The notes below the pieces were generated by a model. The model did no database searches. It worked only from the letters and a program-made list of their open reading frames with translations, and was not told where the DNA came from. This document shows positions 1,326 to 55,496 of a stretch of 64,000 nucleotides of DNA, piece after piece; positions within the stretch are counted from its first letter, which is position 1; each line of letters begins with the position of its first letter. The translations under genes and the position numbers were made by a program. Source of the stretch: Desulfuromonadales bacterium (lineage in GTDB: Bacteria > Desulfobacterota > Desulfuromonadia > Desulfuromonadales > JACZKF01); contig JBJHBH010000009.1 in the NCBI GenBank assembly GCA_050485365.1, positions 2,192-66,191 on the forward strand, read 5' to 3'.

Positions 1326-2329
1326 CGCCGCGACCTCCAGAGCAAAAAGACGAACAGCGGCGCGCCGACCAGGGCGGTGACGATCCCCACCGGCATCTCT
1401 CCGGCGGCGGGGAGGCTTCGCGCGGCCACATCGCAGACAATGAGATAGGCCCCTCCGCCCAGAAGGCAGGCCGGAATCAGCACCCGGTGATCGGGCCCCA
1501 GAAGAAGGCGCAGGACATGGGGGATCACCAGCCCGACGAAGCCGATGAGCCCGGCCTGGCTGACGACGATGGAGACCATGAAGGAGGTGGCGACCAGCAA
1601 CGTCAGCGAGACGGCGCGCACATTGACCCCCATGGCGGCGGCGGCCTCTTCGCCCATGAGCAATAGATCCATGGAGCGGGCCAGAAGGAGGATGACGAGG
1701 GCCGCAGGGAGCACCAGCCACAGCACCGGGAGCTGATCGCGCCCCATCAGGGAGAGATCGCCCATGAGCCAAAAGAGGATGTGGCGGATCTGCGGATCCT
1801 GCGACAAGGAGATGAAGAACATGATGAGGGCGCCGCAAAAGGCGTTCATCATCACCCCCCCCAACAGCAACGAGTCGCTGCGCAGGGCCGAGCGACCGCC
1901 GGCCAGAGACAGCACCAGCGCCAGGGTGACGAGGCTGCCGGCGAAGGCGCTCAGTGAGACTCCGGGAAAAGGGGCAAGCCCCGCCAGCATCCCCACGATG
2001 GCCCCGACGGCGCTGCCGCCCGAGATCCCCAGGATGTACGGTTCGGCGAGGGGGTTGCGCAACAGGGCCTGGAAAACGAGCCCCCCCAGCGCCAGAGCCC
2101 CCCCGGCGACGGCGGCCAGAACGACCCGCGGCAGGCGGATCTGCCAGACGATGGCCGAGGCGACGGGGTCGCTCCCATGCGCGCCGGGCAACAAGTCGCG
2201 CAGCAGACCCCACGAGGCGCCGGACGACCCGACGGCGAGGCCGAGCAGGGACGCCGCCGCCAGGGCCGCACCGAGAAGGACGGCGGGCACCAGAACCCGT
2301 GCGCTCAACGGGGCGAGGGGGGCGCTCAC
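1322..2329 (-). CDS. btuC: FecCD/BtuC-family ABC permease
   Basis: IRLPRVVLA, FQALLRNPLAEPYILGISGG, GLIGFVGLVIPH and GEMPVGIVTALVGAPLF motifs. GTG start at 2329 overlaps the upstream stop. Confidence 0.85.
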   Translation of the reverse strand: MSAPLAPLSARVLVPAVLLGAALAAASLLGLAVGSSGASWGLLRDLLPGAHGSDPVASAIVWQIRLPRVVLAAVAGGALALGGLVFQALLRNPLAEPYILGISGGSAVGAIVGMLAGLAPFPGVSLSAFAGSLVTLALVLSLAGGRSALRSDSLLLGGVMMNAFCGALIMFFISLSQDPQIRHILFWLMGDLSLMGRDQLPVLWLVLPAALVILLLARSMDLLLMGEEAAAAMGVNVRAVSLTLLVATSFMVSIVVSQAGLIGFVGLVIPHVLRLLLGPDHRVLIPACLLGGGAYLIVCDVAARSLPAAGEMPVGIVTALVGAPLFVFLLWRSRR

Positions 2330-3255
2330 CGCTCCTCCGCGTAGAGCTCGGGGTGAATGCGGCGCGCCAGCAGCTCCAACCCCTCCAGCAGGCGAGGGGT
2401 GGGGCGATTGAACAGGTCGGCATCCTCCACGTGGACCCGCTCGCGCTGCACCGCCCGCAGCTGCGGCCAGCGCCTCCAGTCGCGCAGCAGCGCCTCGGGC
2501 GTCTGCCCACCGGCCATGGAGCTGATGACGACGACGTCGGGCTGCAGGCGCAGGATCTCCTCCCACCCGACGCGGGGCCAGGAGGCCTTGCCGGCGGTGA
2601 CGTTGCGCCCCCCGGCCGTCTCGATCAGCTCGTTCAGAAAATTGTCCCCCCCGACGCTGACCAGGGGGGCGGCGTCGACCTGGAAGAAGACCGAAGGGCG
2701 CGCCGCCGCGCCGGCGACGCGCTCACGCACCGCGTCGATGCGCGCGCTCATCTGCGCGACGTGCCGCTTCGCCTCCTCGCGGGCGCCGAGGATCTCGCCG
2801 AGCACGGCGATCGTCTCCATGATGTCGGCCAGCGAACGCGGATCGACGGCGAAGACCGCAATCCCCAACGCATCGAGGCGGCTGACGGCCTCGATGGGGT
2901 TTCCGTCCCGGATCGCCAGAACGAGATCGGGGCGCAGCGCGACGATCCGCTCGATGTCGGGGCGGTGGTACGAGCCGACAAGGGGAATGGCGCGCGCCTC
3001 GGGGGGATGGTCGCTGAACTGCGTCGTCCCTTTGAGAATCCCCTCGCGTCCCAGGGCGAAAACGAGCTCGGTGACGGCGGGCGAAAGGGAGATGACCCGC
3101 TGCGGCGTGGCTGGCACAACGACGCGCCGGCCGGCGAAGTCGACGAGCTCGCGCTCGGCGGCGTGAAGCGCCGGGGTGAGCAAAAGCAGGGGGAGAATAA
3201 GAAGAAATGCGGCTGTCGCGTTTCGGATCGGATGACGTGCGTGGCTCAAACTCAT
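2326..3255 (-). CDS. btuF: Cobalamin-binding periplasmic protein
   Basis: Signal peptide; RVISLSPAVTELVFALG, IERIVALRPDLV and RPTPRLLEGLE motifs of Peripla_BP_2. Confidence 0.85.
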   Translation of the reverse strand: MSLSHARHPIRNATAAFLLILPLLLLTPALHAAERELVDFAGRRVVVPATPQRVISLSPAVTELVFALGREGILKGTTQFSDHPPEARAIPLVGSYHRPDIERIVALRPDLVLAIRDGNPIEAVSRLDALGIAVFAVDPRSLADIMETIAVLGEILGAREEAKRHVAQMSARIDAVRERVAGAAARPSVFFQVDAAPLVSVGGDNFLNELIETAGGRNVTAGKASWPRVGWEEILRLQPDVVVISSMAGGQTPEALLRDWRRWPQLRAVQRERVHVEDADLFNRPTPRLLEGLELLARRIHPELYAEER

Positions 3256-3305: not shown

Positions 3306-5252
3306 TCAGAAGGGGTGGACCAGCCTGAGGCCCGCCACGTAATTTCGCTCGGGGGCGGGATAGATATTCGCCGCCTCGGCTCTAAAGACGCCTGTTTCCG
3401 AATATCTTTCGCTCAAGACGTTATTGATCCCCGCATAGATGGTGAGGGGCCGCAATGCGTAGCTCACCATCAGATCGGTCACCGTGTAATCGCCTCCCTC
3501 CCAGTCGTCCCCGATCACGTTGTTCCAATCGCTGAGCAGATGCTTGCCTGCAATCCAGCGGGTGCGAACGTCAACGACAAGGTCCTTTATCGGGTAGGCC
3601 GTCGCCCGAAGAGCGGCCATATGGCGGGCGACGCCCGGAATCCTGTTACCGTCATACGGGCCGCCGCGCAGCTCATGATCGTTGAAAGTGTAACTGACCC
3701 CCAGACGCACCTTCTCGTGGGGGACGACCTGGGCGCTCAGCTCGACCCCTTCGCGCCGGGTCCGGCCGTAGTTGACGTTTTCACCCCGCCAGAATCCGAA
3801 ATCCTCCATGAACTCGACTTCGGGATTGAAGAAAATCTCGTCCCGGGTGTCGATACGAAAAAGCGTGATCCCGGCTTGAAAACGGTCGCCGAAATGGTGG
3901 CTGACCCCGGTCTGATAATGTCGGCTGATCTGGGGCGAGAGGATCTCGTTGAAGCCGGGCCCACCGAGCTCGTCAAGGAGAACGGTGCGGAACGCGCGAT
4001 CGAACGATGCGAAGAGCTTGCTCCCGGGCGCATAGTTCCAGGCGAGGCCGACGGTGGCAGAATCGGTGTGGAATGCATCGCTGGCGCCTCCGTCGATTTC
4101 ATAGCGGGTGCGGGTATTGCGGTAGCCGAGGCTCAAAAAGAGGTCCTCGCGCAGAGCGATCTTGTCGTAAGCGAAAACACCCGTCTCGCGCCGCCGGCGA
4201 TCCTGGCCGACCTCCTTGTAGTGCAGGTCGCTGGACTGGTAGTCGACGCCGACGACGAGCGTATGGGGGAGCGTGAACAGGGTGAGTTGCTTGGCGTATT
4301 GGGGAGAAATGCCGTAGTCGTCGAGCTCATAGGCGAAGGAGGAAAGCCACTGGACGTATTCGGTTCTCGAATCGGCTTTCCGGGCGCGCAAACCCACCGA
4401 CAGCTCTGAATCGTCGGGGAAGAGAAGGTAGGGGGTCAGCTGAACGTAGCGCTCCCGGGTTTCGGCAAAATCGCCAAGGGAGTGCGTGCTGCGACGACGC
4501 TCGCCCTGCACGATGGAGCCCGGCAGACCGTAGCTGTCGTCCTTGTAGCCCGCCGAGAGGCGCACGCCGAAGCGGTCGGCATCGTACCCGAGGCTGAGCC
4601 CCGTCGTTCGGTTGCGAAAATGGCCGTTGTCGCGATAGCCGTCCGTATCGGTGTACGAACCATCGACGTGCCACGACCATCCACCATGGCTGCCGCCAAG
4701 CCCTAGGGCCTGCTTCGCATAGCCGTAGCTCCCGATGGCCGTCTCGGCGCTCACCGTGGTTTGGGGCGCCCTCTGTCGCGTGATGATGTTGATGACGCCG
4801 CCCGTGGCGTTGTTTCCGTACAGAACGCTGCCGCCCCCGCGCACGATCTCGACCCTTTCGATGCGGTCCAAAGGGATGCTGGTCCAATCGACTCCGGACA
4901 TATCCGGGCTGTTGATCCTTCGCCCGTCGACCATCACCAGAGTGTTGGCCCCGGCCGTTTCTCCGAAACCGCGAATGTCAACCTGGGTGGTGCGACCGGT
5001 GCCGGTAAAGTCGGCCACGTCGATGCCGACGATCCCCCTTAGCAGGTCGGGAAGGGTCTGCGCCGAACCGGCGGCGATCTCCTCGGACGTGACGACGGTC
5101 ACATGCGCCGGCACCGTGACCGGATCCTCACCGATGCGGCTCGCCGTAACGATCATCGACTCGAGCTCCACCGGCGCGGCAAGGGCCGGCGCCGGTGAAA
5201 GGAGTGCGCCTGCTGCTGTACATGCCATGATCTTTCGCATTAAACATTTCAT
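3306..5252 (-). CDS. btuB: TonB-dependent outer-membrane receptor, probably for cobalamin
   Basis: Signal peptide, TonB box-like ESMIVTASR, plug motif IERVEIVRGGGSVLYG...GGVINIIT, C-terminal Phe; downstream of a cobalamin riboswitch. Confidence 0.85.
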   Translation of the reverse strand: MKCLMRKIMACTAAGALLSPAPALAAPVELESMIVTASRIGEDPVTVPAHVTVVTSEEIAAGSAQTLPDLLRGIVGIDVADFTGTGRTTQVDIRGFGETAGANTLVMVDGRRINSPDMSGVDWTSIPLDRIERVEIVRGGGSVLYGNNATGGVINIITRQRAPQTTVSAETAIGSYGYAKQALGLGGSHGGWSWHVDGSYTDTDGYRDNGHFRNRTTGLSLGYDADRFGVRLSAGYKDDSYGLPGSIVQGERRRSTHSLGDFAETRERYVQLTPYLLFPDDSELSVGLRARKADSRTEYVQWLSSFAYELDDYGISPQYAKQLTLFTLPHTLVVGVDYQSSDLHYKEVGQDRRRRETGVFAYDKIALREDLFLSLGYRNTRTRYEIDGGASDAFHTDSATVGLAWNYAPGSKLFASFDRAFRTVLLDELGGPGFNEILSPQISRHYQTGVSHHFGDRFQAGITLFRIDTRDEIFFNPEVEFMEDFGFWRGENVNYGRTRREGVELSAQVVPHEKVRLGVSYTFNDHELRGGPYDGNRIPGVARHMAALRATAYPIKDLVVDVRTRWIAGKHLLSDWNNVIGDDWEGGDYTVTDLMVSYALRPLTIYAGINNVLSERYSETGVFRAEAANIYPAPERNYVAGLRLVHPF

Positions 5253-5360: not shown

Positions 5361-5424
5361 CCGTCTTTAAAGCGCCGCATCTGTCCACCCTCCCATTCCC
5401 GGGGAGGTTGATGTGGGGAGGTCC

Positions 5425-5612
5425 GATCCGGCAGGTCTTCTGGCTCGCGATTCGTCCTCGGGGCCGCCTTCCCGATCCGTCGATCAGTGGCGTCGAGTGG
5501 CCCTTCGTCCTCGCTTACAGCGGCGGGTCCGCGGGGGATTCTCACCCCTCTTCCCTATCAAGCCCTTGCGGGCGCCGATGGACTGTCCTTCAAATTTTGG
5601 GGAACCTTAGTT
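5425..5612 (-). promoter_or_regulatory. Cobalamin (AdoCbl) riboswitch
   Basis: Minus strand reads AAGGTTCC...ATAGGGAAGAGGGGTGAGAATCCCCCGCGGACCCGCCGCTGTAAGC...GCCACTG...GGGAAGGC...GAGCCAGAAGACCTGCC, containing the canonical B12-box elements. It lies 5' of btuB. Confidence 0.93.
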
Positions 5613-11052: not shown

Positions 11053-11143
11053 CCATTATACCCCGTTCCACGACGCGCAGACAGACGGCACACAGCCCAT
11101 TTGCGAGCAAGAATCGAATAGTTAATAAATACTAACTTTTTCA

Positions 11144-11172
11144 TTGACAAGAGGACCCCGAGGGCCTATAAA
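11144..11172 (+). promoter_or_regulatory. sigma70 promoter for the GEMM riboswitch/DGC transcript
   Basis: TTGACA (11144-11149), 17-bp spacer, TATAAA (11167-11172). Confidence 0.75.
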
Positions 11173-11192
11173 AGGGACGAAAATCAGAGCGT

Positions 11193-11282
11193 ACACCTCT
11201 CCGACAAGAGCAAACCTGGAGGAATCCGGGGACGCAAAGCCACGGGTCCGAGACGGACAGCCGAGCCGCCGAAGAGAGGGGA
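11193..11282 (+). promoter_or_regulatory. GEMM-I cyclic dinucleotide riboswitch (A20 variant)
   Basis: CGACAAGAGCAAACC-hairpin-GGGACGCAAAGCCACGGGTCC...GACAGCCGAGCCGCCGAA, closed by CCTCTC/GAGAGG pairing; matches the c-di-GMP-I consensus elements. Confidence 0.88.
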
Positions 11283-11367
11283 GACCGCCTTTGCTCCCGA
11301 AAGGTCCTGTCTGCCCGACCCCTTCGACCGGGCTCCTTCTTCGACACGACCGCCACCGGGGGTAACG

Positions 11368-12228
11368 ATGGAATCTCAAACCTGCCGACCCGCTCACCCA
11401 CGGCGCCTCGGCCGCCGACCACCCCCCTTCTCTTCGGCACCGGTCCGTTCGCCCAAAGCCCTGCTGCTGGTTTCCACTTCGTTCGTCTTGATCTTCCTGG
11501 CCGTCGCCCAGACGATGCTCATTCTCGCCGCGCTGGGCGGCCTTGCCCGACAGGCGCAGATGGCGCTGCAGGCGGCCCTGCTCGTCGCCTTTCTCTGGCC
11601 CCCCGCTTACTTCCTGCTCCTTCGCCCCCTGCATCTTCAAAAAGAGCGCCTCAAGGAAGCAGAGAAAGAAGCGCGCGCCCTCGCGTTTTACGACGCGCTC
11701 ACCTCGCTGCCCAACCGCCTGCTCCTTCGCGAGCGCGCAGAGCGCGCCTTCGCCGAAGCCCGGCGACAGGGGACGTCGGTCGCCGTAATCTTCATCGACC
11801 TGGACGACTTCAAGCAGATCAACGACGCCTTCGGCCACGCCGTCGGAGACGCCTACCTCAAAGCCGTCGCCGACACCCTCACGCAATCGGTCCGGCAAAG
11901 CGATACCGTCGCGCGCATCGGCGGCGACGAATTCGTGTGGGTCGGCCTGGTTCGGGATTACGACGAGGCTGAGACCATCGCCCGCAAGATCCTGCACAGC
12001 CTGACGCGACCTATCGAGTTCGGCGGCCGGGCGCTCAAAATCGGCGCCAGCATCGGCATCGCCGTCCACCCCCGCGACGGCGACGACCTCGACGCCCTCA
12101 TCCAGGCGGCCGACGGCGCCATGTACGCCGCCAAGCGCGGCGGAAAGAACGGATTCCACTCCTCCGTATCGCGCCACTACAACAACTCGACCGCGCGCGA
12201 ATCGGCCTATTCGTATTTTCGCGATTGA
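11368..12228 (+). CDS. Membrane-anchored diguanylate cyclase (GGDEF)
   Basis: Two N-terminal TM segments; YDALTSLPNR, IDLDDFKQINDAFGHAVGD, RxxD I-site (RQSD) and an intact GGDEF. Confidence 0.92.
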   Translation: MESQTCRPAHPRRLGRRPPPFSSAPVRSPKALLLVSTSFVLIFLAVAQTMLILAALGGLARQAQMALQAALLVAFLWPPAYFLLLRPLHLQKERLKEAEKEARALAFYDALTSLPNRLLLRERAERAFAEARRQGTSVAVIFIDLDDFKQINDAFGHAVGDAYLKAVADTLTQSVRQSDTVARIGGDEFVWVGLVRDYDEAETIARKILHSLTRPIEFGGRALKIGASIGIAVHPRDGDDLDALIQAADGAMYAAKRGGKNGFHSSVSRHYNNSTARESAYSYFRD

Positions 12229-12269
12229 CACCCTCTGGTTTGCCCATTAACCTGCTTCGAAAATCATCC

Positions 12270-12346
12270 GCGTCGCTAGCTCAGCTGGATAGAGCATCGG
12301 TCTTCGGAACCGAGGGTCGGGAGTTCGAATCTCTCGCGACGCGCCA
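12270..12346 (+). tRNA. tRNA-Arg, anticodon UCG
   Basis: Acceptor stem GCGTCGC/GCGACGC, D-arm AGCTCAGCTGGATAGAGC, anticodon arm TCGGT-CT-TCG-GA-ACCGA, T-loop GTTCGAATC, encoded CCA; preceded by TTGACA-17bp-TAACCT (12225-12253). Confidence 0.95.
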
Positions 12347-12352
12347 GTGAAC

Positions 12353-12391
12353 AAAGGCCCCAGCACCTCCCGGTGCTGGGGCCTTGTTCTT
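12353..12391. terminator. Intrinsic terminator after the tRNA (possibly bidirectional)
   Basis: AAGGCCCCAGCACC-TCCC-GGTGCTGGGGCCTT followed by GTTCTT. Confidence 0.75.
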
Positions 12392-20954: not shown

Positions 20955-21443
20955 TTGAAGAATCATGTCTGGCGCCCCCTCTACGTCGTTCTCGGCCTCG
21001 TAGCGGTCATTTTGACCTTCCGCTTTTTCTACGTGCCGAGCGACTTCGGCAGCGGGAAGTACGGCTTCATGTACAGTTATCATCGGGCGTCCAACGTCGA
21101 TGAATGGAAAGCGATCGAGCCGAAGTACCGCGATACGGGTCGCCAGAAACTGCACGAGCACTGCTTGGATTGCCATGGCGGCACCATCGGTATCCGCAGC
21201 GAGGACATGCACGGAATGATCTCCTGCGAGAACTGCCACGGTCCGGCTCTCGATCACCCCAACGAGCCGCAGAATCTCCTGATCGACCGCAGCCGCGATC
21301 TGTGCCTGCGCTGTCACACCCACCTCCCCTACACGACGAGCGAGCGCAAGCGCATCCCCGGGATCGACCCCCATGAGCACAACCCCGGCATGTCGTGCGT
21401 CGACTGCCACGATCCGCACAATCCGAGACTGGAGGACATGTAA
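20955..21443 (+). CDS. cbcS: Membrane-anchored tetraheme cytochrome c (CbcS-like)
   Basis: N-terminal TM and four CxxCH motifs (CLDCH, CENCH, CLRCH, CVDCH); first gene of a cytochrome c/FeS/NrfD operon like Geobacter Cbc4. Confidence 0.75.
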   Translation: MKNHVWRPLYVVLGLVAVILTFRFFYVPSDFGSGKYGFMYSYHRASNVDEWKAIEPKYRDTGRQKLHEHCLDCHGGTIGIRSEDMHGMISCENCHGPALDHPNEPQNLLIDRSRDLCLRCHTHLPYTTSERKRIPGIDPHEHNPGMSCVDCHDPHNPRLEDM

Positions 21444-22217
21444 ATGAAGAGGCGAGACTTCCTCAAGAATTCGATAATGGTGATTGCAGGCGCCTCGGTC
21501 CCCCTCTCGGCCTTGCAGTTGGTCGACCCGAAGGAGGTCCTGGCGCAGAACCCCGACATTCACTGGGCCTTTCTGGTCGACACCCACACCTGCGTCGGAT
21601 GCGGCTTCTGCGTCAAGGCATGCAAGATCGAAAACGATGTTCCTCTCGAGGCCAACGTCCACCGCACTTGGGTCGAGCGCTACGTCTACACCAAGGACGA
21701 CCGCCGCTACATCGACAGCCCCAATGGGGCCGAACACGGCTACACCGACCCTCGCATCGATCAGGGGATCGCCGGGAAGGTCGACATCGATCCGGACAAC
21801 GTCGGAAAGGCTTTTTTCGTCCCCAAGCTCTGCAACCAGTGCCTCACCCCCCCCTGCACCCAGGTCTGCCCTGTCGGCGCCACCTACAAGACGGACGACG
21901 GAGTCGTCCTCGTCGACAAGACGTGGTGCATCGGATGCGGCTACTGCGTCATGGCGTGCCCATACGCCGCGCGCTTCTTCCATCCGGTTACCCACGTCCC
22001 CGACAAGTGCACCTTCTGCTACCACCGGATCCACCGGGGTCTGGAGCCGGCATGCGTCAACGCCTGCCCCTTCGAGGCCCGCAGGCTCTGCAATATCCGC
22101 GACGTCAACGATCCGGTGACCAGGATCATCATGACCGAGCGCGTCGGAATCCTCAAAGATGAATTCGGTACCAGACCCCAGGCCTTCTATATCGGTCTTG
22201 CCACGGAGGTGCGTTGA
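21444..22217 (+). CDS. cbcT: Tat-exported 4Fe-4S protein (NrfC/DsrO/CbcT-like)
   Basis: MKRRDFLK Tat motif; CVGCGFCVKAC, CNQCLTPPCTQVCP, CIGCGYCVMACP and KCTFCYHR...PACVNACP. Confidence 0.8.
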   Translation: MKRRDFLKNSIMVIAGASVPLSALQLVDPKEVLAQNPDIHWAFLVDTHTCVGCGFCVKACKIENDVPLEANVHRTWVERYVYTKDDRRYIDSPNGAEHGYTDPRIDQGIAGKVDIDPDNVGKAFFVPKLCNQCLTPPCTQVCPVGATYKTDDGVVLVDKTWCIGCGYCVMACPYAARFFHPVTHVPDKCTFCYHRIHRGLEPACVNACPFEARRLCNIRDVNDPVTRIIMTERVGILKDEFGTRPQAFYIGLATEVR

Positions 22218-23500
22218 AGATGATGGAGCTGGCACAAGCTGTTCACGGTGAAGCCTGGACCCTCAAGGAGTTCTTCGTTCTGCCCAACGAATACGTCTAC
22301 TGGTCGATCCAGATCGTCATGTACCCCTTCATGACGGGGCTCGTTGCGGGGGCCTTCGTCCTCTCCTCGCTCTATCACGTCTTCGGCATCAAACGCCTGA
22401 AGGAGATCGCGCGCTTCTCGCTCGTCTTCTCCCTGGCCCTGCTGCCGGTGGCGATGATGCCGCTATTGCTTCATCTTACGCAACCGTTTCGCGGCTTTCA
22501 CGTCATGATGACGCCGCACTTCACTTCGGCGATCGCCGCCTTCGGCATCGTCTTCATGACCTACGGCTCCATCGTCGCCAGCGAGCTATGGTTCGTCTAC
22601 CGCAAGCACTTCGTCCTTACGGTGATGGAGCTGAAGGAAAAACGCGACCGCACCTCCCTCGAGAACCTGCGCCTCAACTTCAACAAGATCCTCACCCTCG
22701 GCGCCATGGACATCAGCGAGGAGGCTCTCGAAAAAGACCACAAGGCGACCAAGTACCTGGCGGCCGTCGGGATTCCCGTCGCCTGTTTTCTGCACGGATA
22801 CGCCGGGTTCATCTTCGGATCGGTCAAGGCCAATGCCCTGTGGATGACCCCCCTGATGCCGGTCATCTTCATCATGTCCGCCGTCGTCTCGGGGATCGCC
22901 CTGTGCATCCTGTGCTATGTGGTGACGCAGGAGATCCGCAAGTTCATGGCCAAACGAAAACTATCACGCTGGGGGAAGGACCCCAAAGCCCCGAGCATCG
23001 AGCAGCTTCAAGGAGCGGAGCAGGGGGGAGTTGCGATCGCCTCCAACTATCTTCTCTACTTCATGATCGGCGCCGTCACCCTGGAGATCCTCGACATCAT
23101 TTTCCGCGGCTACACTCAGGTAAAATCGTGGGACATCCTGGGCACTGTCATCATGGAGCGCAAGTTCGTCTCGCTCTGGATCATGCAGTTCGGCATCGGC
23201 AACATCCTCCCCTTCATCATGATGGTCATGCCGGGGCGCACCGTGAGAAGGACCGTCATCGCCTGCATCCTCGTCCTCTTCGGCGTCTTCATGATGCGCT
23301 GGAACATCGTCATCGGCGGACAGGCCTTCTCCCTGAGCTTCGCCGGTTTCATGCACTATCAGCTTCCGATCATTCCGCAAAACTGGGAGACCTTCCGGGA
23401 AGGGCTTACCGGCGCCCTGCTTGTCGCGACCACCCCCTTCATCCTTTTCTGGGGGATCAACAAGTTCATGCCGGTCTTTGTCGACGAAAAACGAGTCTGA
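22214..23500 (+). CDS. cbcU: NrfD/PsrC-family quinol-interacting membrane subunit (CbcU-like)
   Basis: YWSIQIVMYPFMTGLVAGAF, LLLHLTQPFR, HGYAGFIF, LWMTPLMP and MRWNIVIGGQ motifs. Confidence 0.8.
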   Translation: MKMMELAQAVHGEAWTLKEFFVLPNEYVYWSIQIVMYPFMTGLVAGAFVLSSLYHVFGIKRLKEIARFSLVFSLALLPVAMMPLLLHLTQPFRGFHVMMTPHFTSAIAAFGIVFMTYGSIVASELWFVYRKHFVLTVMELKEKRDRTSLENLRLNFNKILTLGAMDISEEALEKDHKATKYLAAVGIPVACFLHGYAGFIFGSVKANALWMTPLMPVIFIMSAVVSGIALCILCYVVTQEIRKFMAKRKLSRWGKDPKAPSIEQLQGAEQGGVAIASNYLLYFMIGAVTLEILDIIFRGYTQVKSWDILGTVIMERKFVSLWIMQFGIGNILPFIMMVMPGRTVRRTVIACILVLFGVFMMRWNIVIGGQAFSLSFAGFMHYQLPIIPQNWETFREGLTGALLVATTPFILFWGINKFMPVFVDEKRV

Positions 23501-23607
23501 ACGAAAAACGGGAGGGCGCCGGCCGATCTTTCGACCCGCGCCCTCCCGGGCTCTTCGCACTGCGTCTGCGCTCTTCCAAATCCCCTCATCTCGAGGGGAT
23601 TCGTCTT

Positions 23608-23883
23608 TCAGGGCCTGCTCGCAACGCCGGCTTTTCTGACGGCTCTGACCATGTGAATGCCGCTTCGGTTCCGGAAGATGCGCATCAGCATCACCCCGAG
23701 GATGGAGAGGAAGAAGCCGACGCAGAGGACGACGTAGCCGAGGCTCCTCCCTTCGCCGATGCCGGCCAGCTCCTTTCCGCCGAGTAGCCCTATCATGGCG
23801 ATGGCGACGAAGGTGACGATACCCCCCAACACATAGACGACCAACGCCGATACGCCCCAGATCATATCTTTTTGCAGTTTCAT
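23608..23883 (-). CDS. Small two-TM membrane protein downstream of cbcL
   Basis: Start MKLQKDMIWG at 23883 with RBS GGAGG; two hydrophobic helices. Confidence 0.6.
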   Translation of the reverse strand: MKLQKDMIWGVSALVVYVLGGIVTFVAIAMIGLLGGKELAGIGEGRSLGYVVLCVGFFLSILGVMLMRIFRNRSGIHMVRAVRKAGVASRP

Positions 23884-23942
23884 CTTTACCTCCGCAGGTG
23901 AAGGGTGGGGGGAGCGCGAGGCTCCCCCCGTTTTTTCCGCCA

Positions 23943-25937
23943 TCAGCCCGAGATGAAGGCGTAGAGCATCAGGAAGGCCAGCGTCAGGCCGGTGAAGACA
24001 GCGAGGAAGCCGAAGCCCTTGAAGAAGAAGTCGTAGAGGACGCCGCTCGTCTTCTTGGCCTCGAACTGATCGAGGATGCCGAGCTCTTCGTAGCGCTTCC
24101 ACTGATCGCCGCGCTCATGGATGAACTCTTCCTTGGAGATCTGCCCGTTGAAGATGACGAAGTCCATCGGGAACTTCTCGGGGCGCCCGTGGGTGTTGAA
24201 GAAGTGGACGGTGAAGATGAAGCCGGTGGCGAGCAGCGCCTCGTCCGAGTGGACGATGGTGGCGACGTTGAACGTCCACCCCGGCAGGAAGAGGGCGAAG
24301 AATTCGGGGAACCACAGCATGAGCCCCGAGCCGCCGATGGCGAACATCCCCCAGAAGACCGCGAGGAAGTCGAACTTCTCCCAATACGTCCAGCGCTCGA
24401 AGGTCGGCTTCGGCCCTTTGAAGAAGAACCACTTGACCATGGCGCTGATGTCCTTGACGTCCCGCAGGTTGGGCATGAGGGAGTCGGGGCCGAAGAGGCG
24501 CTGCAGCCAGTGGGCCTTGGTGCCGTTGCGGTTGTAGACGTTCTTGCGGATGAACAGGAAGTCGAAGCTCATGATGAGCGCGCCGAGGAAGTAGTAGAAG
24601 GTCAGAATGGCGCAGCCGCGATGGATGAGACCGGCCAGGTGCACCCCGCCGAAGAAGTTCATCATGCTCACGGCCCAGGCCTGGTCGGCGAACTTCAGGG
24701 GTAGACCGGTCAAAGAGAGGCCGAGGAAGCTGATGATCACCACCAGGTGCAGGTAGATGTGGCGCTTCTCGAAGCGGATGTACTGTTTGTTGGGCTCGGA
24801 GATGGCGTGGGCGTGCGCCCCTGCGGCTCCGCCTCCGTGCATCCCCCCGACGGGCATGGTCACGGCGACCGACGCCGACACCCCGTCGGCAACGGCTTCG
24901 GCGGTCTCCTCGTCGTGCGACACCGATTGCGACTGGGCGTCGCGCTCGGCCTGCTTCTCGCGGTTCTCGACGAAGCCTCGGAACATCCACAGCAGCGTAT
25001 GGATCCAGAAGACGGCGAAGACACCGACCAGCAGGGACGTCATGCTGATGTAGGTCCAGTACAGGATCGGGTAGTTGGCCCGGTCGGTGTGGTCGCCGTG
25101 CGGTTGAAACTGGGTGAACAGTTTGTTCGCTCTGGGGTGGCACTGGGCGCAGGTGGCCACCAGGTTGTCGGGGTGGATGCTCGAGGCGACATGATCGCGC
25201 GGCAGCACGGCGTGGGCCGTGTGGCAGTCAGAGCAGCCCGCCGTGTCTTCGGGGAAGCCGAGGCGGTAGCCCTTGCCGTGGTAGTTGTCGAGGTAGGTGC
25301 GCACCGTCAGGGCCGAGAGACCGGCGCGGCTCATCATCTGCTCATCGCCGTGGCAGCTCATGCAGGCGTCGGTATGGAAGGCCATCTTCTGCCGGTCGTC
25401 TCCGAGGGCGTCGATCTGGTGCAGGCCGTGGCAGTCGTGGCAGGCGGCCGAATCGGGGTTGCCGTCCAGGACCGAACGGCCGTGAATCGACTCGAGGTAT
25501 TCGGGGTGGTAATGGCACTGCTGGCACGACTCGACGGCCGTCACCTTGTTCCCCCGCCACGCCTGGACGGCGTGGATCTCGGTGTGGCAGTCCTTGCACC
25601 CGATGCCGCTCATCATGTGGATGCTGGCGGCGTGCTCGGCCGTCTCCTCCCGGTGGCAGCGGGAGCAGTTGACCGGCTCGATGCGCGCCGTGCCGTCCAT
25701 GTGCGCATCGATATCCGTGATCTGCGTATGGCAGCTCGTGCACGAGTTGTGGCCGTGAACCGACATCCCGAAGGCTTCGGCGTCGATGTCCCCCATGTGG
25801 CAGTCCATGCAGCTTTCGGCGGCAGGCGGCAGGGCTGCGGGTGACGACAGTGGTGCGCCCAGAATCCAGCAGAAGAGCAAAATCGGAATCAGTCTGAACC
25901 TCATCGGCTTCATCCTCCAGTTTGAGTTGAAATACAT
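23943..25937 (-). CDS. cbcL: CbcL: nonaheme cytochrome c fused to a b-type cytochrome membrane domain
   Basis: Nine CxxCH motifs counted (CMDCH, CTSCH, CSRCH, CKDCH, CQQCH, CHDCH, CMSCH, CSDCH, CAQCH), then an FdnI-like b domain (HLVVIISF, IHRGCA, YWEKFDFLAVFWG, HSDEALLA, HFFNTH). Start may be MRFRL. Confidence 0.9.
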   Translation of the reverse strand: MYFNSNWRMKPMRFRLIPILLFCWILGAPLSSPAALPPAAESCMDCHMGDIDAEAFGMSVHGHNSCTSCHTQITDIDAHMDGTARIEPVNCSRCHREETAEHAASIHMMSGIGCKDCHTEIHAVQAWRGNKVTAVESCQQCHYHPEYLESIHGRSVLDGNPDSAACHDCHGLHQIDALGDDRQKMAFHTDACMSCHGDEQMMSRAGLSALTVRTYLDNYHGKGYRLGFPEDTAGCSDCHTAHAVLPRDHVASSIHPDNLVATCAQCHPRANKLFTQFQPHGDHTDRANYPILYWTYISMTSLLVGVFAVFWIHTLLWMFRGFVENREKQAERDAQSQSVSHDEETAEAVADGVSASVAVTMPVGGMHGGGAAGAHAHAISEPNKQYIRFEKRHIYLHLVVIISFLGLSLTGLPLKFADQAWAVSMMNFFGGVHLAGLIHRGCAILTFYYFLGALIMSFDFLFIRKNVYNRNGTKAHWLQRLFGPDSLMPNLRDVKDISAMVKWFFFKGPKPTFERWTYWEKFDFLAVFWGMFAIGGSGLMLWFPEFFALFLPGWTFNVATIVHSDEALLATGFIFTVHFFNTHGRPEKFPMDFVIFNGQISKEEFIHERGDQWKRYEELGILDQFEAKKTSGVLYDFFFKGFGFLAVFTGLTLAFLMLYAFISG

Positions 25938-25946
25938 GGATCCGCC

Positions 25947-26609
25947 TCAGCTACGCAACAATACTTCCAATGCCTTGTCCTTGTCCGGGTTGTTGAATCG
26001 AAAAACCATCTCCTTGAGGTAGAGCTGAAATTCGTTGCGAAAACTCCCCCGATACCGCCTCAGGTGCTTGCGGGAGAATTCCCAGAATTCCGAAGCGACG
26101 CCTCGATCGCTTTCGGTGCTGTGGGGGAGGTGACGCTGAAGGATGCGGCTGAGAAAGTTCTCCTTCATCCCCCATTGCCCCCCCAGAACGAGGTACGAAC
26201 AACACGCCGGCGGAAGGGCCGCTGCGGAGCCGTCGGGAAAGGCGACCCACACGGTCCCTTCGCGAACGCCGATGCCGCACAGAAGATCGACGATCTTCTC
26301 CGGCCGCCCCTCATTCCCCTGCGACGCGACAGGGGGGCAGTGAACGAGGTCGTTCTGGGCGGCCATCTTCTCCCGGAGCTCGCGGTAGATGCGCTGCGCC
26401 GTCTTGCGATTGATCCCGGCCAGATCGGCGGCCTGGTAGGCCGAACCGAGATTCCAGAAAAGCTGGGCGACGAACTCGCGCTTCTCCTGCGGCAGTCGCC
26501 CCTGGCGCGGATGCGGGGTGAACTTCACGCGGCAGTGACGGCACAGACGACGGCCATCCGCCAAAAGATAGGAATCTGAACTGGAGCAGGCCGGACAATG
26601 ATCGTTCAT
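25947..26609 (-). mobile_element. IS1595-family transposase-derived protein lacking the DDE catalytic residues
   Basis: Zn ribbon CPAC...CRHC, HTH AYQAADLAGINRKTAQRIY and C-terminal FWEFSRKHLRRYRG...FQLYLKEMVFRFN match IS1595 transposases; the DExY, TD and NxIE motifs are absent; no terminal inverted repeats seen. Confidence 0.65.
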
Positions 26610-26885
26610 GCGTTGCCATCCTCCCATAGGTCCTTTTTTCTGGCCTGTTCGAAAATTCCACAAAAAAATTTGGCCAAAGTTTGATTGACCTCCTTTGCCA
26701 CTTCGACCTGTGCGGCCGCACGCTCGGGCGGCCGCTACTCTCTTTGAGGGCACAGGACCAGGGAATAGGCCATTAGATGACTCTTATGTGACACTGTCAA
26801 CCTTTTCCGCTTCATCAGCCCACCTTCTCTCCTGTTTCGTTGATGCACTTTCCGAGCCCATCGGCGAGGGTTCCGCCCGTCAACT

Positions 26886-28295
26886 TCAGGCCAACTCGTG
26901 CCGTTTCATCCAGCGCCACAGCGTGGTGCGATCGACCCCCAGAACGCCCGCCACCTCGGTGCGGTTTCCCCCGTGCCGGTTAAGCAGGTCGCTGAGCGCA
27001 TCGGCCGAGATCTCCTTGCGCCGGCTGCGTGCCGCCGGATGCGTCGGCGCGCTGCGCGGCACCAGGGCCGCCGGGAGGTGCTCCAGATCCATCTCGTCGC
27101 TGCGGCAGAAGATGACGGTCTGCTCCATGATGTTGAGCAACTCGCGCACGTTGCCGGGGTAGTCGTAATCGAGCAGGACCTGCAGCGCCCCGGAGGAGAT
27201 CCCCCGGATCTGCTTGGCGTAGGTGCGGTTGAGGCGCTCTAGGAAAAGATCGATGAGCAGCGGAACGTCTTCGGGGCGCTGGCGAAGAGGCGGAATATGC
27301 AGCGCCAGAACGTTGATCCGGAAGAAGAGGTCGCGCCGAAACGTCCCCGCGCTCACTCTGGCGCTCAGATCGCAGTTGGTGGCGGCGATGAAGCGCACAT
27401 CGATCTTCTGAGGCGCATCGCTCCCCAAGGGGAGATATTCCTGGGTCTCGATGACGCGCATCAGCTTCACCTGCTGCGACAAGGGGAGCTCGCCGATCTC
27501 GTCGAGGAAGAGCGTCCCCCCCCTGGCCAGCTCGAGCCGCCCGGGGCGATCGGCGCCGTCGCCGTCGGGGCCTCGGCGGGTGCCGAAGAGCTCGGCTTCC
27601 AGCTGCTTCTCCGGCACGGCACCGCAGTTCACGGTGACGAAGGGGCCGGCGCTGCGGTGACTGAGTTCATGAATCGCCTTGACGACCAACTCCTTGCCGG
27701 TTCCGCTTTCCCCAGAGACGAGCACCGTGGCATCGCTTCGCGCCACATCGGGCAGCGCATCGAAGAGCCGCCGCATCAGCCGGTTGCAGCTGACGAGATT
27801 GCGGAAGGTGTACGGCGCCGCGTGTTGCGGCGCCTGCTCGCAGCGCGTGCGAAACGCCTCCACGACGCCGATGGCGTGCCCCGCGGCGTCCTTCAGCACC
27901 GAGGCGTTGAGCGAGATGGGGACGCGCTTGTTGTCCTTGTTGCGGATCTCGACATCCCGGTTGACGATGGGGCGGCCGGACCTGCGGGCTTCACGCACCG
28001 GGCAGCAGCTCGAACAGAGGGTGGAGCGCATCACCTCGTGGCACGGACGTCCGAGGACCTCCTCGCGGGTGAAGCCCGTGATCTGCTCGGCGGCGCTGTT
28101 GAAGGAGGTGATGCGCATCTGCTCGTCGACGGTGAAGACGGCGTCGGCCACGCAGTTGAGGACGGCGCCGGTGAGCGCTGACGAGGCGACGGAGAGATGG
28201 GCCGACGCCCTGCCGGTGCGTGCGCTTTGCGAATTCCACGAACTGTGATGTCTGACTTGTGCATCACTCATGGCACACCTCTCGATTTCGATCAC
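26886..28295 (-). CDS. PAS-AAA+-Fis enhancer-binding-type regulator with degenerate GAFTGA loop
   Basis: PAS (FNSAAEQITGF), Walker A GESGTGKE, Walker B LFLDE, FIAATN, PGNVREL, C-terminal HTH LGVDRTTLWRWM; GAFTGA replaced by GPDGDGA. Start probably MSDAQ. Confidence 0.9.
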   Translation of the reverse strand: MIEIERCAMSDAQVRHHSSWNSQSARTGRASAHLSVASSALTGAVLNCVADAVFTVDEQMRITSFNSAAEQITGFTREEVLGRPCHEVMRSTLCSSCCPVREARRSGRPIVNRDVEIRNKDNKRVPISLNASVLKDAAGHAIGVVEAFRTRCEQAPQHAAPYTFRNLVSCNRLMRRLFDALPDVARSDATVLVSGESGTGKELVVKAIHELSHRSAGPFVTVNCGAVPEKQLEAELFGTRRGPDGDGADRPGRLELARGGTLFLDEIGELPLSQQVKLMRVIETQEYLPLGSDAPQKIDVRFIAATNCDLSARVSAGTFRRDLFFRINVLALHIPPLRQRPEDVPLLIDLFLERLNRTYAKQIRGISSGALQVLLDYDYPGNVRELLNIMEQTVIFCRSDEMDLEHLPAALVPRSAPTHPAARSRRKEISADALSDLLNRHGGNRTEVAGVLGVDRTTLWRWMKRHELA

Positions 28296-28488
28296 CCGGT
28301 TGATCCACCCGAACCGCTTCGCCTTCAGATACTCGATCTCTCCTTTTTTTCCTCCTGTGAGGGGTAAATTTACCGCCGCCGAAAGATCCGTCTTGCATTT
28401 CTCCGGTTAATCCGGTATTCTCCGAGCGTTTAAATACCCGTCCTGAATAAGTTTTTTCCCATTAACACCAACGGAAAAGGTAGACACG

Positions 28489-29646
28489 ATGTCGCTTTCA
28501 GATCTCTGGGCGTGGTGCAAAAGGCACCTTCTGCTGGTTACGTTTCTTGCCGTCGGCCTCATTTTCGTCTTCGCCGTCGTCAACGTGCAGATCCTTCACA
28601 TGACCTCGGAACCGGAGTTCTGCGCCATGTGCCACCCGAACCAGGGGTACGGTCCGCTCGCCGAGGTCGACTCGTGGGCCCACTCGACCCACGCGGCCGC
28701 CGGCGTCTCGTGTCTCGACTGCCACGGCCGCCCCGGTCTGGTCGGCTACATGAAGGCCAAGATCGGCGGCCTCTACGACGTCTACATGCAGTTCGCCCTT
28801 TCGCCGGAGGAAAAACTCGCCATCCTGGCGAACCCCTCCCCCGACCTCGTTCCGGAAGACCACTGCCTGTACTGTCACTCCGATGAGCAGAATCTCGCCA
28901 CCCGTCAGGCGACCCGCTTCATGGACATCGTGAACATGCGCATGCTCGACGGCGTCCAGAATCCGGAATTTCGCGAGCGCAAGGGGATTCCCGACATCCT
29001 GGCGGGCCCGACCCGCGAAAACTCGCGCTTCGACCACGTCTTCCACATGGACGCCTTCAACCTGTCGTGCAACGACTGTCACTTCGGCGTCGTGCACAAC
29101 CCCCAGAGCAAGACCGACCTGATGAACATGTGCATCGCCTGCCATCAGGGCTACGAAGGCTCGTCGGCTCCCCTTCTGGCCGATTGCGCCGGTTGCCACT
29201 CGGTGCAGAACGACATGTACCTGGGCCAGGGCGCCCGCAGCGTGCCGGAAGAGGAAGGACTCAAGTCCATGTTCGGCATCAGCTGCGAGATGTGCCACTC
29301 CTCGGTCTTCCAGGGCATCTACCGCCCCTCGGCGAGCACCTGCATCGATTGCCATGACGCCGGCTACAACGAGATTCTGGTCATGTGGCAGCAAGATACC
29401 AAAGAGCAGGTTGCCAAACTCGACCGCCTGCGCCTGACCGTCGAAGACGCCCTGCGCGACGGCGATGCCCGCGGCCGGGACAACACGGCGCGCTGGGAAA
29501 CTTTCCAGAAAGCGGTCTTCAATCTCAAGCTCGTGAAGAAGGACGGTGCCAAAGGGGCGCACAACGCCGACTATGCCCACTCCATCCTCACTTCGGTCGA
29601 AGAGGATTTCAATGCCATCCTCACCGACATTCGCATCACCTGGTAA
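28489..29646 (+). CDS. NapC/NirT-type membrane-anchored octaheme cytochrome c
   Basis: N-terminal TM, TSEPEFCAMCH; eight CxxCH motifs (CAMCH, CLDCH, CLYCH, CNDCH, CIACH, CAGCH, CEMCH, CIDCH); C-terminal helical KDGAKGAHN segment. Confidence 0.88.
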   Translation: MSLSDLWAWCKRHLLLVTFLAVGLIFVFAVVNVQILHMTSEPEFCAMCHPNQGYGPLAEVDSWAHSTHAAAGVSCLDCHGRPGLVGYMKAKIGGLYDVYMQFALSPEEKLAILANPSPDLVPEDHCLYCHSDEQNLATRQATRFMDIVNMRMLDGVQNPEFRERKGIPDILAGPTRENSRFDHVFHMDAFNLSCNDCHFGVVHNPQSKTDLMNMCIACHQGYEGSSAPLLADCAGCHSVQNDMYLGQGARSVPEEEGLKSMFGISCEMCHSSVFQGIYRPSASTCIDCHDAGYNEILVMWQQDTKEQVAKLDRLRLTVEDALRDGDARGRDNTARWETFQKAVFNLKLVKKDGAKGAHNADYAHSILTSVEEDFNAILTDIRITW

Positions 29647-34490: not shown

Positions 34491-34686
34491 GGCGCTCCCG
34501 ATCCTCGAGCTTTGTCCCGGAAGAAGGCATCGAATTCCGGCGCTGCGGCCCCCCTCGCCGGGGGGGCACGCTTTCCAGTATAGCAAGTCGCTTCGAAGCG
34601 GCATCGCGCCGCCGATCCGTGGCGCTGCGCCCCCGGCGGGTGTATCTTCACTAGAGGAGCCACCACATTTTCCGAGGAGGCCGCCC

Positions 34687-35280
34687 GTGTTCGAAGCGCC
34701 GTTTCTCACCTCACCGTTCTTCTCCCTCGTCGTCATCCCCTTTCTCATCTTCATCTCGCGCATCGTCGATGTGACCTTCGGCACGCTGCGCATCATCTTC
34801 GTCTCGCGGGGGCTGCCGTATCTGGCGGCGCTGGTGGGATTTTTCGAAGTGCTGATCTGGATCGTCGCCATCGGTCAGGTGATGCAGAACCTCACCAACT
34901 GGGTCACCTACGTCGCCTACGCCTTCGGCTTCTCGGCGGGCAACTTCGTCGGGGTCGTCATCGAGCGCAGGCTCGCCATGGGCAGCCTCATCGTTCGGAT
35001 CATCACCCGCAGGGAGGCCGATGAGCTGGTAAAATTTCTATGGCGCTCGGGGTACGGCGTCACGAGCGTCGATGCGCGCGGAGAGACCGGCCCGGTCAAG
35101 GTCATCTTCACCATCGTCAAGCGCAAGAAGCTCCCCGAGGTGATCGAGATCATCAAGCGCTACAACCCCAACGCCTTCTATTCCATCGAGGACGTGCGCT
35201 TCGTGAACGAGACTCTGTGGGCCGCTCCCATGGGGAGGCGCGCCCTCTTTTCCCTGCGTTCGTTGCGAAAACGCAAGTGA
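34687..35280 (+). CDS. DUF2179/UPF0316 membrane protein
   Basis: GTG start after GAGGAGG; RIVDVTFGTLRI, GFFEVLIW, YAFGFSAGNFVG and YNPNAFYSIEDVR motifs. Confidence 0.85.
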   Translation: MFEAPFLTSPFFSLVVIPFLIFISRIVDVTFGTLRIIFVSRGLPYLAALVGFFEVLIWIVAIGQVMQNLTNWVTYVAYAFGFSAGNFVGVVIERRLAMGSLIVRIITRREADELVKFLWRSGYGVTSVDARGETGPVKVIFTIVKRKKLPEVIEIIKRYNPNAFYSIEDVRFVNETLWAAPMGRRALFSLRSLRKRK

Positions 35281-48022: not shown

Positions 48023-49078
48023 TCATAGCACAGGACGAGGCGGCGGTGAAGCCTTCCGGTCTTTTTTCTCCAAAAGAGCGTCCACCGCCTCGGGGATCTG
48101 CTCCAGCGGCAGGATGCGGTGGGCGGCGCCGAGGGCGACGGCGGCCGCCGGCATGCCGTAGATGGTGCTCGTCGCCTCGTCCTGCACCATGGTGAAGGCC
48201 CCCGCCTCCTTGAGGCGAAGGAGCCCCGCCGCGCCGTCGCGCCCCATGCCGGTCAAGAGCAGGGCGACGACGCTCGGAGCGACCGGTGCCAAGGAGGCGA
48301 ACAGGACGTCGATGGACGGGCGGCAGCTGTTCACCGCGGGGGCGTCGGTCAGCCGGACGCGTCCGTCGCGCACCTCCAGGTGAGCCCCCTCCGGGGCGAT
48401 GAGGGCGACCCCTTCCTCGAGGGGATCGCCCTCGCGGGCGACGCGGACGCGAAAAGGGCACTCCTCCCCCAGCCAGCGGGCGAAGCCGGCGGCAAAGCCG
48501 GGGGCGATATGCTGCACGATCACGATCCTGGGACGGCTTTGCGGCGGGATGTTTCTTAGCAGGTACTGGATCGCCTTGGGACCGCCGGTGGAGGCGCCGA
48601 CGGCGAGAACCCGTCTGGCGCCGTCGGCGGGGGGGGGCTCTTTCCGGGCCGCGCGGCGCCCCCCGCGAAAGTGGTGCAGGACCCGGATCCCCGCGAGAAA
48701 CTTCACCTTCTCGATGAGCTGCGTCGAGAAGCGCTCCTCGCAGACCGTCTCCGCCTTCACCATCACGTCGAGGGCGCCCAGCGAGATCGCCTTGAAGGCG
48801 CAACGGCTGTCCTCCGGATCGACGTGCCCCGACAAGACGAGGATGGGGGTCGGCCGCCGCGCCATGATCTCCTCGATCGCCTGGAGCCCGTCCAGCACCG
48901 GCATCATGATGTCGAGGACGAGCAGGTCGGGACACAGCCGCAGCGTCAGATCGACGGCCTCCCTCCCGTTGGCGGCCTCGGCCACGACCTCGATGCCGGC
49001 GTCGCGCTCGAGGATCTCGCGCACCATCATTCGAACGACTCTGGAATCGTCGGCGATCAGCACCCGAATCGCTTCCAT
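48023..49078 (-). CDS. cheB: Chemotaxis response regulator protein-glutamate methylesterase
   Basis: REC plus methylesterase: [30 protein letters not shown]. Confidence 0.95.
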
Positions 49079-49091
49079 TGCACTCCCTTAT

Positions 49092-52984: not shown

Positions 52985-53018
52985 TGGGCGATCGGGTTTC
53001 GATCCCGCCGGCGGCGGG

Positions 53019-55447: not shown

Positions 55448-55496
55448 CCCCCCTGAGCCCTCCGACGACGCCGGAGGTCAACGCCCGCCAAAGGGG

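Follow-up and report, generated by a model that had tools for sequence, protein, structure and literature searches.

Does one cyclic dinucleotide control the synthesis of another in a Desulfuromonadales bacterium? The question is raised by a 64,000-nucleotide (nt) stretch of contig JBJHBH010000009.1 (GenBank assembly GCA_050485365.1, positions 2,192 to 66,191 of the forward strand), hereafter the window, in which a small GGDEF gene is preceded by an RNA aptamer of the GEMM-I type with adenine at the position of G20 in the Vibrio Vc2 riboswitch. An initial annotation, made from the letters alone, had taken this A20 as the mark of selectivity for cGAMP (3',3'-cyclic GMP-AMP), and had proposed a cross-talk node through which cGAMP would govern a synthase of cyclic di-GMP (c-di-GMP). 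We favour a different explanation, with a probability of roughly 55%: that in this uncultured organism an Ia-type riboswitch carrying G20A occupies the leader of a gene for a small canonical diguanylate cyclase anchored in the membrane, and that ancestral negative feedback by c-di-GMP now runs through a bispecific A20 aptamer built as an OFF switch. GEMM elements upstream of GGDEF genes have been known since 2007, when the motif was described (PMC1950547).

The RNA upstream of the gene is a GEMM-I aptamer with A20. The RF01051 (c-di-GMP-I) covariance model matched over its full length (model positions 1-87) with 58.3 bits, relative to a gathering score of 35, and an E value of 8e-9, which refers to the whole 64-kb window searched against 4227 Rfam families; this was the only GEMM-I match in the window. 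The aptamer lies 5' of the gene: counted from the Rfam match, the putative promoter is 50 nt upstream and the start codon 95 nt downstream. All listed pairs of the P1/P2/P3 three-helix junction are canonical (Table 1), and two outer pairs of P3 are mismatched in the model alignment. The motif CGACAAG-A-GC-AAACC was found at 11202-11216, and the Rfam consensus ...AAaGGCAAAcc aligns to ...CAAGAGCAAACC in the window, with the conserved G of model position 11 opposite A11209. This base is unpaired and stands immediately 5' of the G-C and C-G pairs that precede AAACC, which is the place of Vc2 G20. In Vc2 numbering, G20 is followed by G21-C46 and C22-G45, and A47 and C92 are the other ligand contacts (PMC6140456); the equivalents of the latter two, A11236 and C11269 (in GCCGAA), are both kept in the alignment. 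The initial annotation was therefore right that a GEMM-I aptamer precedes the cyclase gene and that A, not G, occupies position 20. On its sequence the aptamer is predicted to bind a cyclic dinucleotide.

The downstream gene encodes a protein that, on its signature residues, is a canonical diguanylate cyclase like PleD and WspR, with c-di-GMP as the predicted product. Its GGDEF domain covers residues 106-261 (nt 11683-12150), and its best relatives in the PDB are diguanylate cyclases (5m3c, 2.7e-41; PleD, 7e-22). Hypr cGAMP synthases have Ser348 where canonical enzymes have Asp, and Ser or Thr is found there only together with GGDEF; at the cross-dimer place they have Tyr304 or some residue other than Arg, whereas Arg is present in 94% of diguanylate cyclases (PMC6456294). 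Neither Hypr signature was found in the window cyclase. The guanine-specifying Asp161 (nt 11848-11850; D344 in PleD, position 348 in GacA) and Asn152 (N335 in PleD) are present in INDAFGHAVGD, and the cross-dimer Arg117 (nt 11716-11718) in LTSLPNR lies 44 residues before Asp161, a spacing equal to those from Arg537 to D581 and from Tyr304 to Ser348. The GGDEF motif is intact (residues 185-189, nt 11920-11934), and an RxxD I-site, RQSD (residues 176-179, nt 11893-11904), stands five residues ahead of it. The Hypr enzymes GacA, GSU1937 and Bd0367 share the fold, the GGDEF motif and the RxxD I-site with the window protein but have Ser/Thr where it has Asp161 and Tyr, Ser, Ala or Gln where it has Arg117. 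We consider the pattern search able to discriminate because it did flag four Acidobacteriota proteins that combine Ser, Ala and GGDEF. The earlier description of the enzyme as a canonical GGDEF protein is thereby upheld. Two hydrophobic segments near the N terminus (about residues 30-58 and 66-88) are followed by a short linker, and because no recognisable sensor domain was found in the N-terminal 100 residues, the cyclase may be regulated mainly through its expression and its I-site.

As a separate observation from the pattern search, GGDEF proteins of Acidobacteriota or Pyrinomonadaceae at L055:2465, L061:6163, L067:6163 and L076:3541 carry HLVGS (Ser), LHNARY (Ala) and GGDEF, and are candidate Hypr cGAMP synthases.

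What A20 predicts can be read from published aptamers. Wild-type Vc2 binds c-di-GMP with picomolar affinity and cGAMP at 10 uM, while its G20A mutant binds the two at 53 nM and 120 nM, and Cbe 1-2, a natural A20 aptamer from Clostridium beijerinckii, at 30 nM and 463 nM (PMC6140456). According to the same study, c-di-GMP is bound via protonated A20, bispecificity is widespread in the class, the P1 stem may contribute to selectivity, and in Gs1761 A20 forms a pair with cGAMP's adenine (PMC6140456). Both ligands elicit a response from the omcST riboswitch of G. sulfurreducens, whereas that of pgcA is about 1200-fold selective (PMC6456294). Because Vc2 G20A, Cbe 1-2 and omcST all bind or respond to both ligands, A20 is necessary but not sufficient for cGAMP selectivity; by analogy, it would also greatly weaken c-di-GMP binding. 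Vc2 G20A and Cbe 1-2 present A20 on an otherwise c-di-GMP-type pocket (G21-C46, A47 and C92), as does the window aptamer. The latter differs from both in host, in regulated gene and in a very short P3 with no obvious tetraloop receptor.

The bases around A20 bear on the subclass, the determinants of which we drew from later papers and from sequences gathered in this analysis. The window aptamer reads A-GC-AAACC...GACGC-AAAGCC and keeps the Vc2-type G21-C46 pair, whereas three aptamers from Desulfuromonadales loci gathered via DUF815 (L101, L112 and L125) read AAUA-C(C/U)-NAACC...G(G/A)CGG-AAAGC, with a C-G pair adjoining A20. In Gs1761, P2 runs C15-G40, with G40 stacked on the alpha base (PMC6274999), and the pilM riboswitch has U15-G38 and G39 (PMC9262584). 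The aptamer core of the window is 82% identical to that of its G20 ortholog (L081, described below), 76% to that of L070, which also has G20 (AAUG-GC-AAACC...GACGC-AAAGCC) and precedes a PAS-GGDEF gene, and 56-65% to the Ib-like L125, L101 and L112. In sequence the window aptamer is not akin to validated Ib aptamers and lacks their C-G pair beside A20, although this pair is a correlate of GEMM-Ib and not a curated criterion. The Geobacter GEMM-Ib riboswitches (Gs1761 before pgcA and Gm0970 before pilM) belong to the same fold family and have A at the G20 equivalent, and the host of the window is from a related order of bacteria that respire metals. They differ from the window in having C-G rather than G-C under the alpha base, and in being ON switches with a terminator that overlaps the aptamer, whereas the modelled platform of the window resembles an OFF switch; known Ib regulons consist of cytochromes, pili and lipoproteins, not a cyclase (PMC6456294). 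The window aptamer is best described, from these sequence features, as Ia-type with a natural G20A, outside the Geobacter Ib lineage.

The compared aptamers have contexts of their own. At L101:2167-2243 (-) and L112:2067-2143 (-), the Ib-like aptamer (A20, C-U...G-G) carries an ON terminator, GCCGGGUUGCC...GGCAGCCCGGCUUUUUUU, before a 54-amino-acid (aa) open reading frame (ORF), and both lie directly downstream of DUF815, the chromosomal spot of the window cassette. The L101 design is that of Geobacter ON switches, with the terminator overlapping the 3' half of the aptamer. At L125:1503-1583 (+), on a Desulfuromonadales-like metagenome contig, an Ib-like aptamer (A-CC-AAACC...GACGG-AAAGCC) precedes a 317-aa ORF. 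The L070 aptamer (L070:4815-4891, +), in a Desulfuromonadales metagenome-assembled genome (MAG), lies about 120 nt upstream of the long PAS-GGDEF ORF and is a second c-di-GMP-type riboswitch before a cyclase in the order.

In a search of 5.8 billion proteins, P0002 was the one full-length ortholog of the cyclase; it is 61% identical and also 286 aa long. The metagenome contigs that encode it (L081-L087) are syntenic with the window, with a divergent msrB upstream and tRNA-Arg and DUF815 downstream, and the neighbours are 94% (DUF815) and 75% (MsrB) identical. An aptamer was found by Rfam at the same place, CUCAGAAAUGGCAAACC...CGCAAAGCC, and it reads AAAUG-GC-AAACC, that is G20, with A47 and C92. 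When the L081 and window leaders are compared, the TTGACA promoter, aptamer, P1 strands, Shine-Dalgarno sequence and start codon all align, and the genes agree in length and motifs, with RETD at the I-site of P0002. L081 differs in G20, in pairing A with U at a position that is mismatched (A.C) in the window, in a strong terminator, and in an upstream DUF2795 gene that is absent from the window. The change between the two aptamers is a natural counterpart of the laboratory G20A mutation. Because G20 is found in the sole ortholog, together with a clean intrinsic terminator in an OFF arrangement, the ancestral circuit was most likely, to judge from the sequences, negative feedback of c-di-GMP on the cyclase.

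Further searches for the gene gave little. An exact-protein look-up of the cyclase returned no record, and a scan of genome collections with its protein yielded GGDEF-domain paralogs at no more than 54% identity and no ortholog. This cyclase does not adjoin DUF815 in any of 80 further Desulfuromonadales loci from a metagenome scan with DUF815 (82-90% identity). A search based on MsrB returned two cassette-free relatives (L168 and L169) and two short uninformative contigs, and the P0014 contig has no sequence upstream. In L168 (MAG GCA_030604755.1) and L169 (a Logan contig) the neighbourhood is the same, about 55 nt separate tRNA-Arg from DUF2795, and the riboswitch-cyclase cassette is missing. 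Two details of the P0002 comparison stand apart. The C-terminal tail of the cyclase (residues 260-286, window 12145-12228), SRHY..S..RES.YSYFR, is kept in P0002 despite an overall identity of 61%. The L081 aptamer (L081:2280-2354) scores best against the variant family RF03167 (c-di-GMP-I-GGC; 66.6 bits, gathering score 59), and it reads CGCAAAGCC where the RF03167 consensus reads CGCGAAGCC, i.e. it has A at the A47 position; this assignment seems to follow from the shortness of P3 and the form of P1, and not from the variant base.

A closer relative came from a 1402-nt contig (X2) in a sludge RNA-seq assembly from a different community, about 95% identical to the window. Compared with the window, 11193-11305 shows no differences and 11306-11354 shows nine; the coding part has diverged by about 4%. 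A20 is not an assembly error, because this relative matches the window throughout 11193-11305, and because 0 of 113 positions changed in the aptamer stretch compared with 9 of 49 in the next stretch of the leader (Fisher p = 1.2e-5, one relative pair), the sequence evidence is that the aptamer, A20 included, is under purifying selection. We rejected the X2 contig as evidence of transcription or termination, as only assembled contigs are available and this one spans the divergent promoter region. In addition, a 117-nt contig from the source metagenome (run X1) overlaps window 11209-11251 and contains a GEMM-I aptamer reading ...AAAA-A-GC-AAACC... (A20, G21-C22); its depth is about twice that of the window contig, and it probably belongs to another organism or locus.

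The direction of the switch is clearest in the ortholog. In the unconstrained minimum free energy (MFE) fold of the L081 leader, the P1 3' strand CCGAAGAGAGUGGG pairs with CCCAUUUUCUUCGG, the 5' half of the terminator, as an antiterminator. With the aptamer enforced, the terminator GCCCAUUUUCUUCGGAAGAUGGGC (-16.1 kcal/mol) forms, followed by UUUUCUUUUC, at a position aligned with the hairpin of the window. On these models ligand would favour termination, making L081 an OFF switch, and the layout matches the P/A/T/H arrangement of the Cd1 OFF switch (PMC9262584). Cd1 is a transcriptional c-di-GMP-I riboswitch from Clostridioides difficile in which the 3' strand of P1 either closes P1 or joins the 5' half of the terminator in an antiterminator; this alternation is clear in L081 and less so in the window. 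Cd1 itself carries G20 and governs flagellar genes, whereas the window has A20 and a weak terminator, and sequestration of the Shine-Dalgarno sequence may contribute there.

In the window leader, CGAAGAGAGGGG has as alternative partners the P1 5' strand or CCC (11314-11316) plus CUUCG (11322-11326), and in the free fold CGAAG...GGG pairs with CCC...CUUCG. The candidate terminator (5 bp, -8.5 kcal/mol) appears only with the aptamer enforced, and in that fold UUGCUCCCG is predicted to pair with 11357-11365, covering the Shine-Dalgarno sequence. The leader states are nearly isoenergetic (-64.6 vs -63.8 kcal). As modelled, the platform would be a weaker homologue of the L081 arrangement with Shine-Dalgarno pairing added, and with moderate confidence, borrowed mainly from L081, we read the window leader as an OFF switch acting through attenuation, translation or both. 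A candidate hairpin, GGGAG/CUCCC (11279-11283 paired with 11294-11298), shows covariation with GGGAA/UUCCC of L081; it was not relied on, being absent from the predicted folds of the window and backed by two sequences, which are too few. Transcription is predicted to start near 11179-11180. TTGACA and the -10-like hexamer are kept at equal spacing in the alignment with L081, and TATAAA is kept in the X2 relative. A promoter scanner gave no match here, but it demands T at the last -10 position, and this hexamer ends in A.

We propose the following mechanism for the favoured explanation. Transcription would begin about 15 nt before P1, and a bound cyclic dinucleotide would hold P1 closed. The P1 3' strand would then be unavailable to the downstream CCC and CUUCG, the hairpin at 11313-11333 with its U-rich tail could form, the candidate anti-Shine-Dalgarno strand could pair with its target, and the cyclase gene would be turned down. 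In the ancestral form, with the G20 and strong intrinsic terminator kept in the sole ortholog, this would be negative feedback of c-di-GMP on its own synthesis, and the window lineage would have fixed G20A on an otherwise Vc2-like pocket. By analogy with Vc2 G20A and Cbe 1-2, such an aptamer would still bind c-di-GMP, far more weakly than a G20 aptamer and hence with a higher feedback set-point, and its affinity for cGAMP would be comparable. In a cell that makes cGAMP, the cyclase would be repressed by cGAMP too, and the GEMM-Ib-like aptamers in related contigs make the presence of cGAMP in this organism plausible. The aptamer, its A20, the canonical enzyme signatures, the G20 of the ortholog and the conservation in a close relative are seen directly in sequence, whereas the OFF direction, the bispecificity and any presence of cGAMP are inferred; simple or retuned c-di-GMP feedback with optional cross-reading of cGAMP is more likely than cGAMP as the input.

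The explanation implied by the initial annotation, that the aptamer is cGAMP-selective and that cGAMP, not c-di-GMP, controls the c-di-GMP synthase and, given the OFF architecture, represses it, is unlikely but live. It draws on the pairing of A20 with the cGAMP adenine in Gs1761, on a Desulfuromonadales host in an order where the Ib-like aptamers of related contigs (L101, L112 and L125) make cGAMP signalling plausible, and on a fixed A20 in an aptamer kept in a diverged relative. Such wiring would also be sensible, as cGAMP and c-di-GMP have opposing actions in G. sulfurreducens (PMC6456294), and cGAMP repressing c-di-GMP synthesis would complement the inhibition of GacA by c-di-GMP at its I-site (PMC6456294; PMC8835794). 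However, A20 alone yields bispecific RNAs, as in Vc2 G20A and Cbe 1-2, the G21-C46 pair is kept, the nearest aptamer relative is the G20 ortholog rather than an Ib-like RNA, and both the OFF-like platform and the regulated gene are unlike those of known GEMM-Ib riboswitches. Pfam searches also found no cGAMP synthase (Hypr GGDEF or cGAS/DncV-like nucleotidyltransferase) within the window. Of the proposed cross-talk node, the A20 aptamer before a canonical cyclase stands, and the step from A20 to cGAMP selectivity is not supported. More speculative still is the full circuit, in which a cGAMP-responsive A20 OFF switch shuts down a dedicated c-di-GMP synthase and forms, with the inhibition of GacA by c-di-GMP, a double-negative toggle that would have arisen by one G-to-A change in an existing c-di-GMP feedback riboswitch, with the ancestral G20 state surviving in a sister lineage. 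Pure c-di-GMP feedback, in which cGAMP is absent or irrelevant and G20A was fixed for weaker binding with shut-off only at higher c-di-GMP, strikes us as improbable, even though the loss of affinity from Vc2 wild type to G20A (PMC6140456), the ancestral feedback to which the G20 ortholog points, and the layered product feedback suggested by the RxxD I-site all fit it. It is separable from the favoured explanation only by whether cGAMP is made, and the Ib-like aptamers in relatives argue for cGAMP in the order. Very improbable is a decaying or non-functional riboswitch, i.e. a dispensable cassette with an eroded terminator and a neutral or mildly damaging A20. The cassette is indeed absent from the syntenic locus of L168 and L169, the window hairpin is much weaker than that of L081, and P3 has its two mismatched pairs, but the aptamer is unchanged next to a diverging leader, its covariance-model score is well over the gathering threshold, the ORF is intact with all catalytic motifs, and the promoter, Shine-Dalgarno sequence and start codon are conserved.

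Several points weigh against our preferred explanation of a bispecific, Ia-type OFF switch. The fixation and conservation of A20, in an order with cGAMP riboswitches, fit selection for a new ligand as well as they fit tuning of affinity. The C-G pair as a correlate of GEMM-Ib comes from five sequences, and because selectivity also depends on the P1 stem and ionic conditions, with determinants that are incompletely known (PMC6140456), a G-C pair at 21-46 is compatible with cGAMP selectivity. The window hairpin is weak, its U tract is interrupted, and the approximately 95% identical relative has changes inside it; the OFF direction is carried over mainly from L081 and from MFE predictions.

Should the A20 leader respond to cGAMP, cGAMP would be tied to c-di-GMP synthesis at the RNA level for the first time, and a riboswitch would have naturally changed or broadened its ligand by one substitution with the regulated gene kept. 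If it is bispecific or specific to c-di-GMP, it would be ordinary product feedback on a cyclase and a warning that position 20 by itself does not identify a cGAMP riboswitch. The main value of the locus lies in the orthologous pair of L081 (G20) and the window (A20), a system for the effects of G20A on affinity, selectivity and feedback set-point in a native scaffold.

Table 1. Features of the riboswitch-cyclase region, in window coordinates.
Feature	Position	Strand	Basis or detail
Putative sigma-70 promoter	11144..11172	+	TTGACA 11144-11149, 17-nt spacer, TATAAA 11167-11172; read from sequence
GEMM-I aptamer including P1	11196..11279	+	Rfam RF01051 match 11199-11273
P1	11196-11203 with 11270-11279	+	AA bulge 11272-11273; pairing check
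A at Vc2 G20 position	11209..11209	+	covariance-model alignment; base contacts alpha nucleobase of ligand
G21-C22	11210..11211	+	pair with G11234-C11235 (Vc2 G21-C46, C22-G45)
P2	11210-11235	+	GGAA loop 11221-11224 (GNRA-type); pairing check
P3	11238-11267	+	pairing check
J3/1	G11268, C11269	+	pairing check
P1 3' strand (CGAAGAGAGGGG), predicted switching strand	11270..11281	+	unconstrained MFE versus aptamer-enforced folds
Candidate anti-Shine-Dalgarno UUGCUCCCG	11291..11299	+	aptamer-enforced fold, thermodynamic prediction
Candidate weak terminator	11313..11343	+	GCCCG 11313-11317 with CGGGC 11329-11333, 11-nt loop, tail UCCUUCUUCG 11334-11343
Shine-Dalgarno and start codon	11358..11370	+	GGGGG 11358-11362, ATG 11368-11370; sequence; start conserved with ortholog P0002
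Diguanylate cyclase, 286 aa	11368..12228	+	Pfam PF00990, 1.8e-47
tRNA-Arg(TCG)	12270-12346	+	42 nt after cyclase stop codon
Terminator hairpin, 14 bp	12354-12385	+	follows tRNA-Arg; feature with tRNA spans 12270..12385

The contig comes from a mine-tailings metagenome, its UvrB is 87% identical to that of Desulfuromonas versatilis, and the best named matches are all Desulfuromonadales. The tRNA-Arg gene and its terminator are also present in the relatives L081 and L168, and the tRNA and the cyclase may share a transcript. No strong terminator was found other than the one after the tRNA, and read-through from the riboswitch-controlled promoter could add to its transcription. The cassette itself (window 11053-12270, compared with L168:6300-6700 and L169) is an insertion or deletion among close relatives. 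The DUF2795 gene present in L081, L168 and the X2 contig is missing from the window, which has msrA between the tRNA and DUF815.

Pfam searches found no other cyclic-dinucleotide genes in the 64-kb window. A respiratory cluster lies at 20955-29646. Its part at 20955-23500 encodes a small multihaem cytochrome together with a 4Fe-4S protein and an NrfD-type membrane subunit; the cluster further includes a c7-type multihaem cytochrome of 664 aa (23943-25937, -), a sigma-54 activator with PAS (26886-28295, -) and a cytochrome in which NapC/NirT and c7 are fused (28489-29646). No gene of this cluster is preceded by a GEMM aptamer. A cobalamin riboswitch (RF00174, 101.5 bits, 5413-5596, -) immediately precedes genes for a TonB-dependent receptor and a periplasmic binding protein (3306-5252 and 2326-3255, both -), an ordinary B12-uptake operon. 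A chemotaxis-like cluster at 48023-57377 (-), adjoining glnS and cysS, encodes CheB, a CheA-CheW-REC hybrid, a methyl-accepting chemotaxis protein, CheW and a REC-CheR-TPR fusion. An 833-aa protein at 32370-34871 (-) has two phospholipase D motifs fused to a C-terminal VTT (DedA-like) membrane domain.

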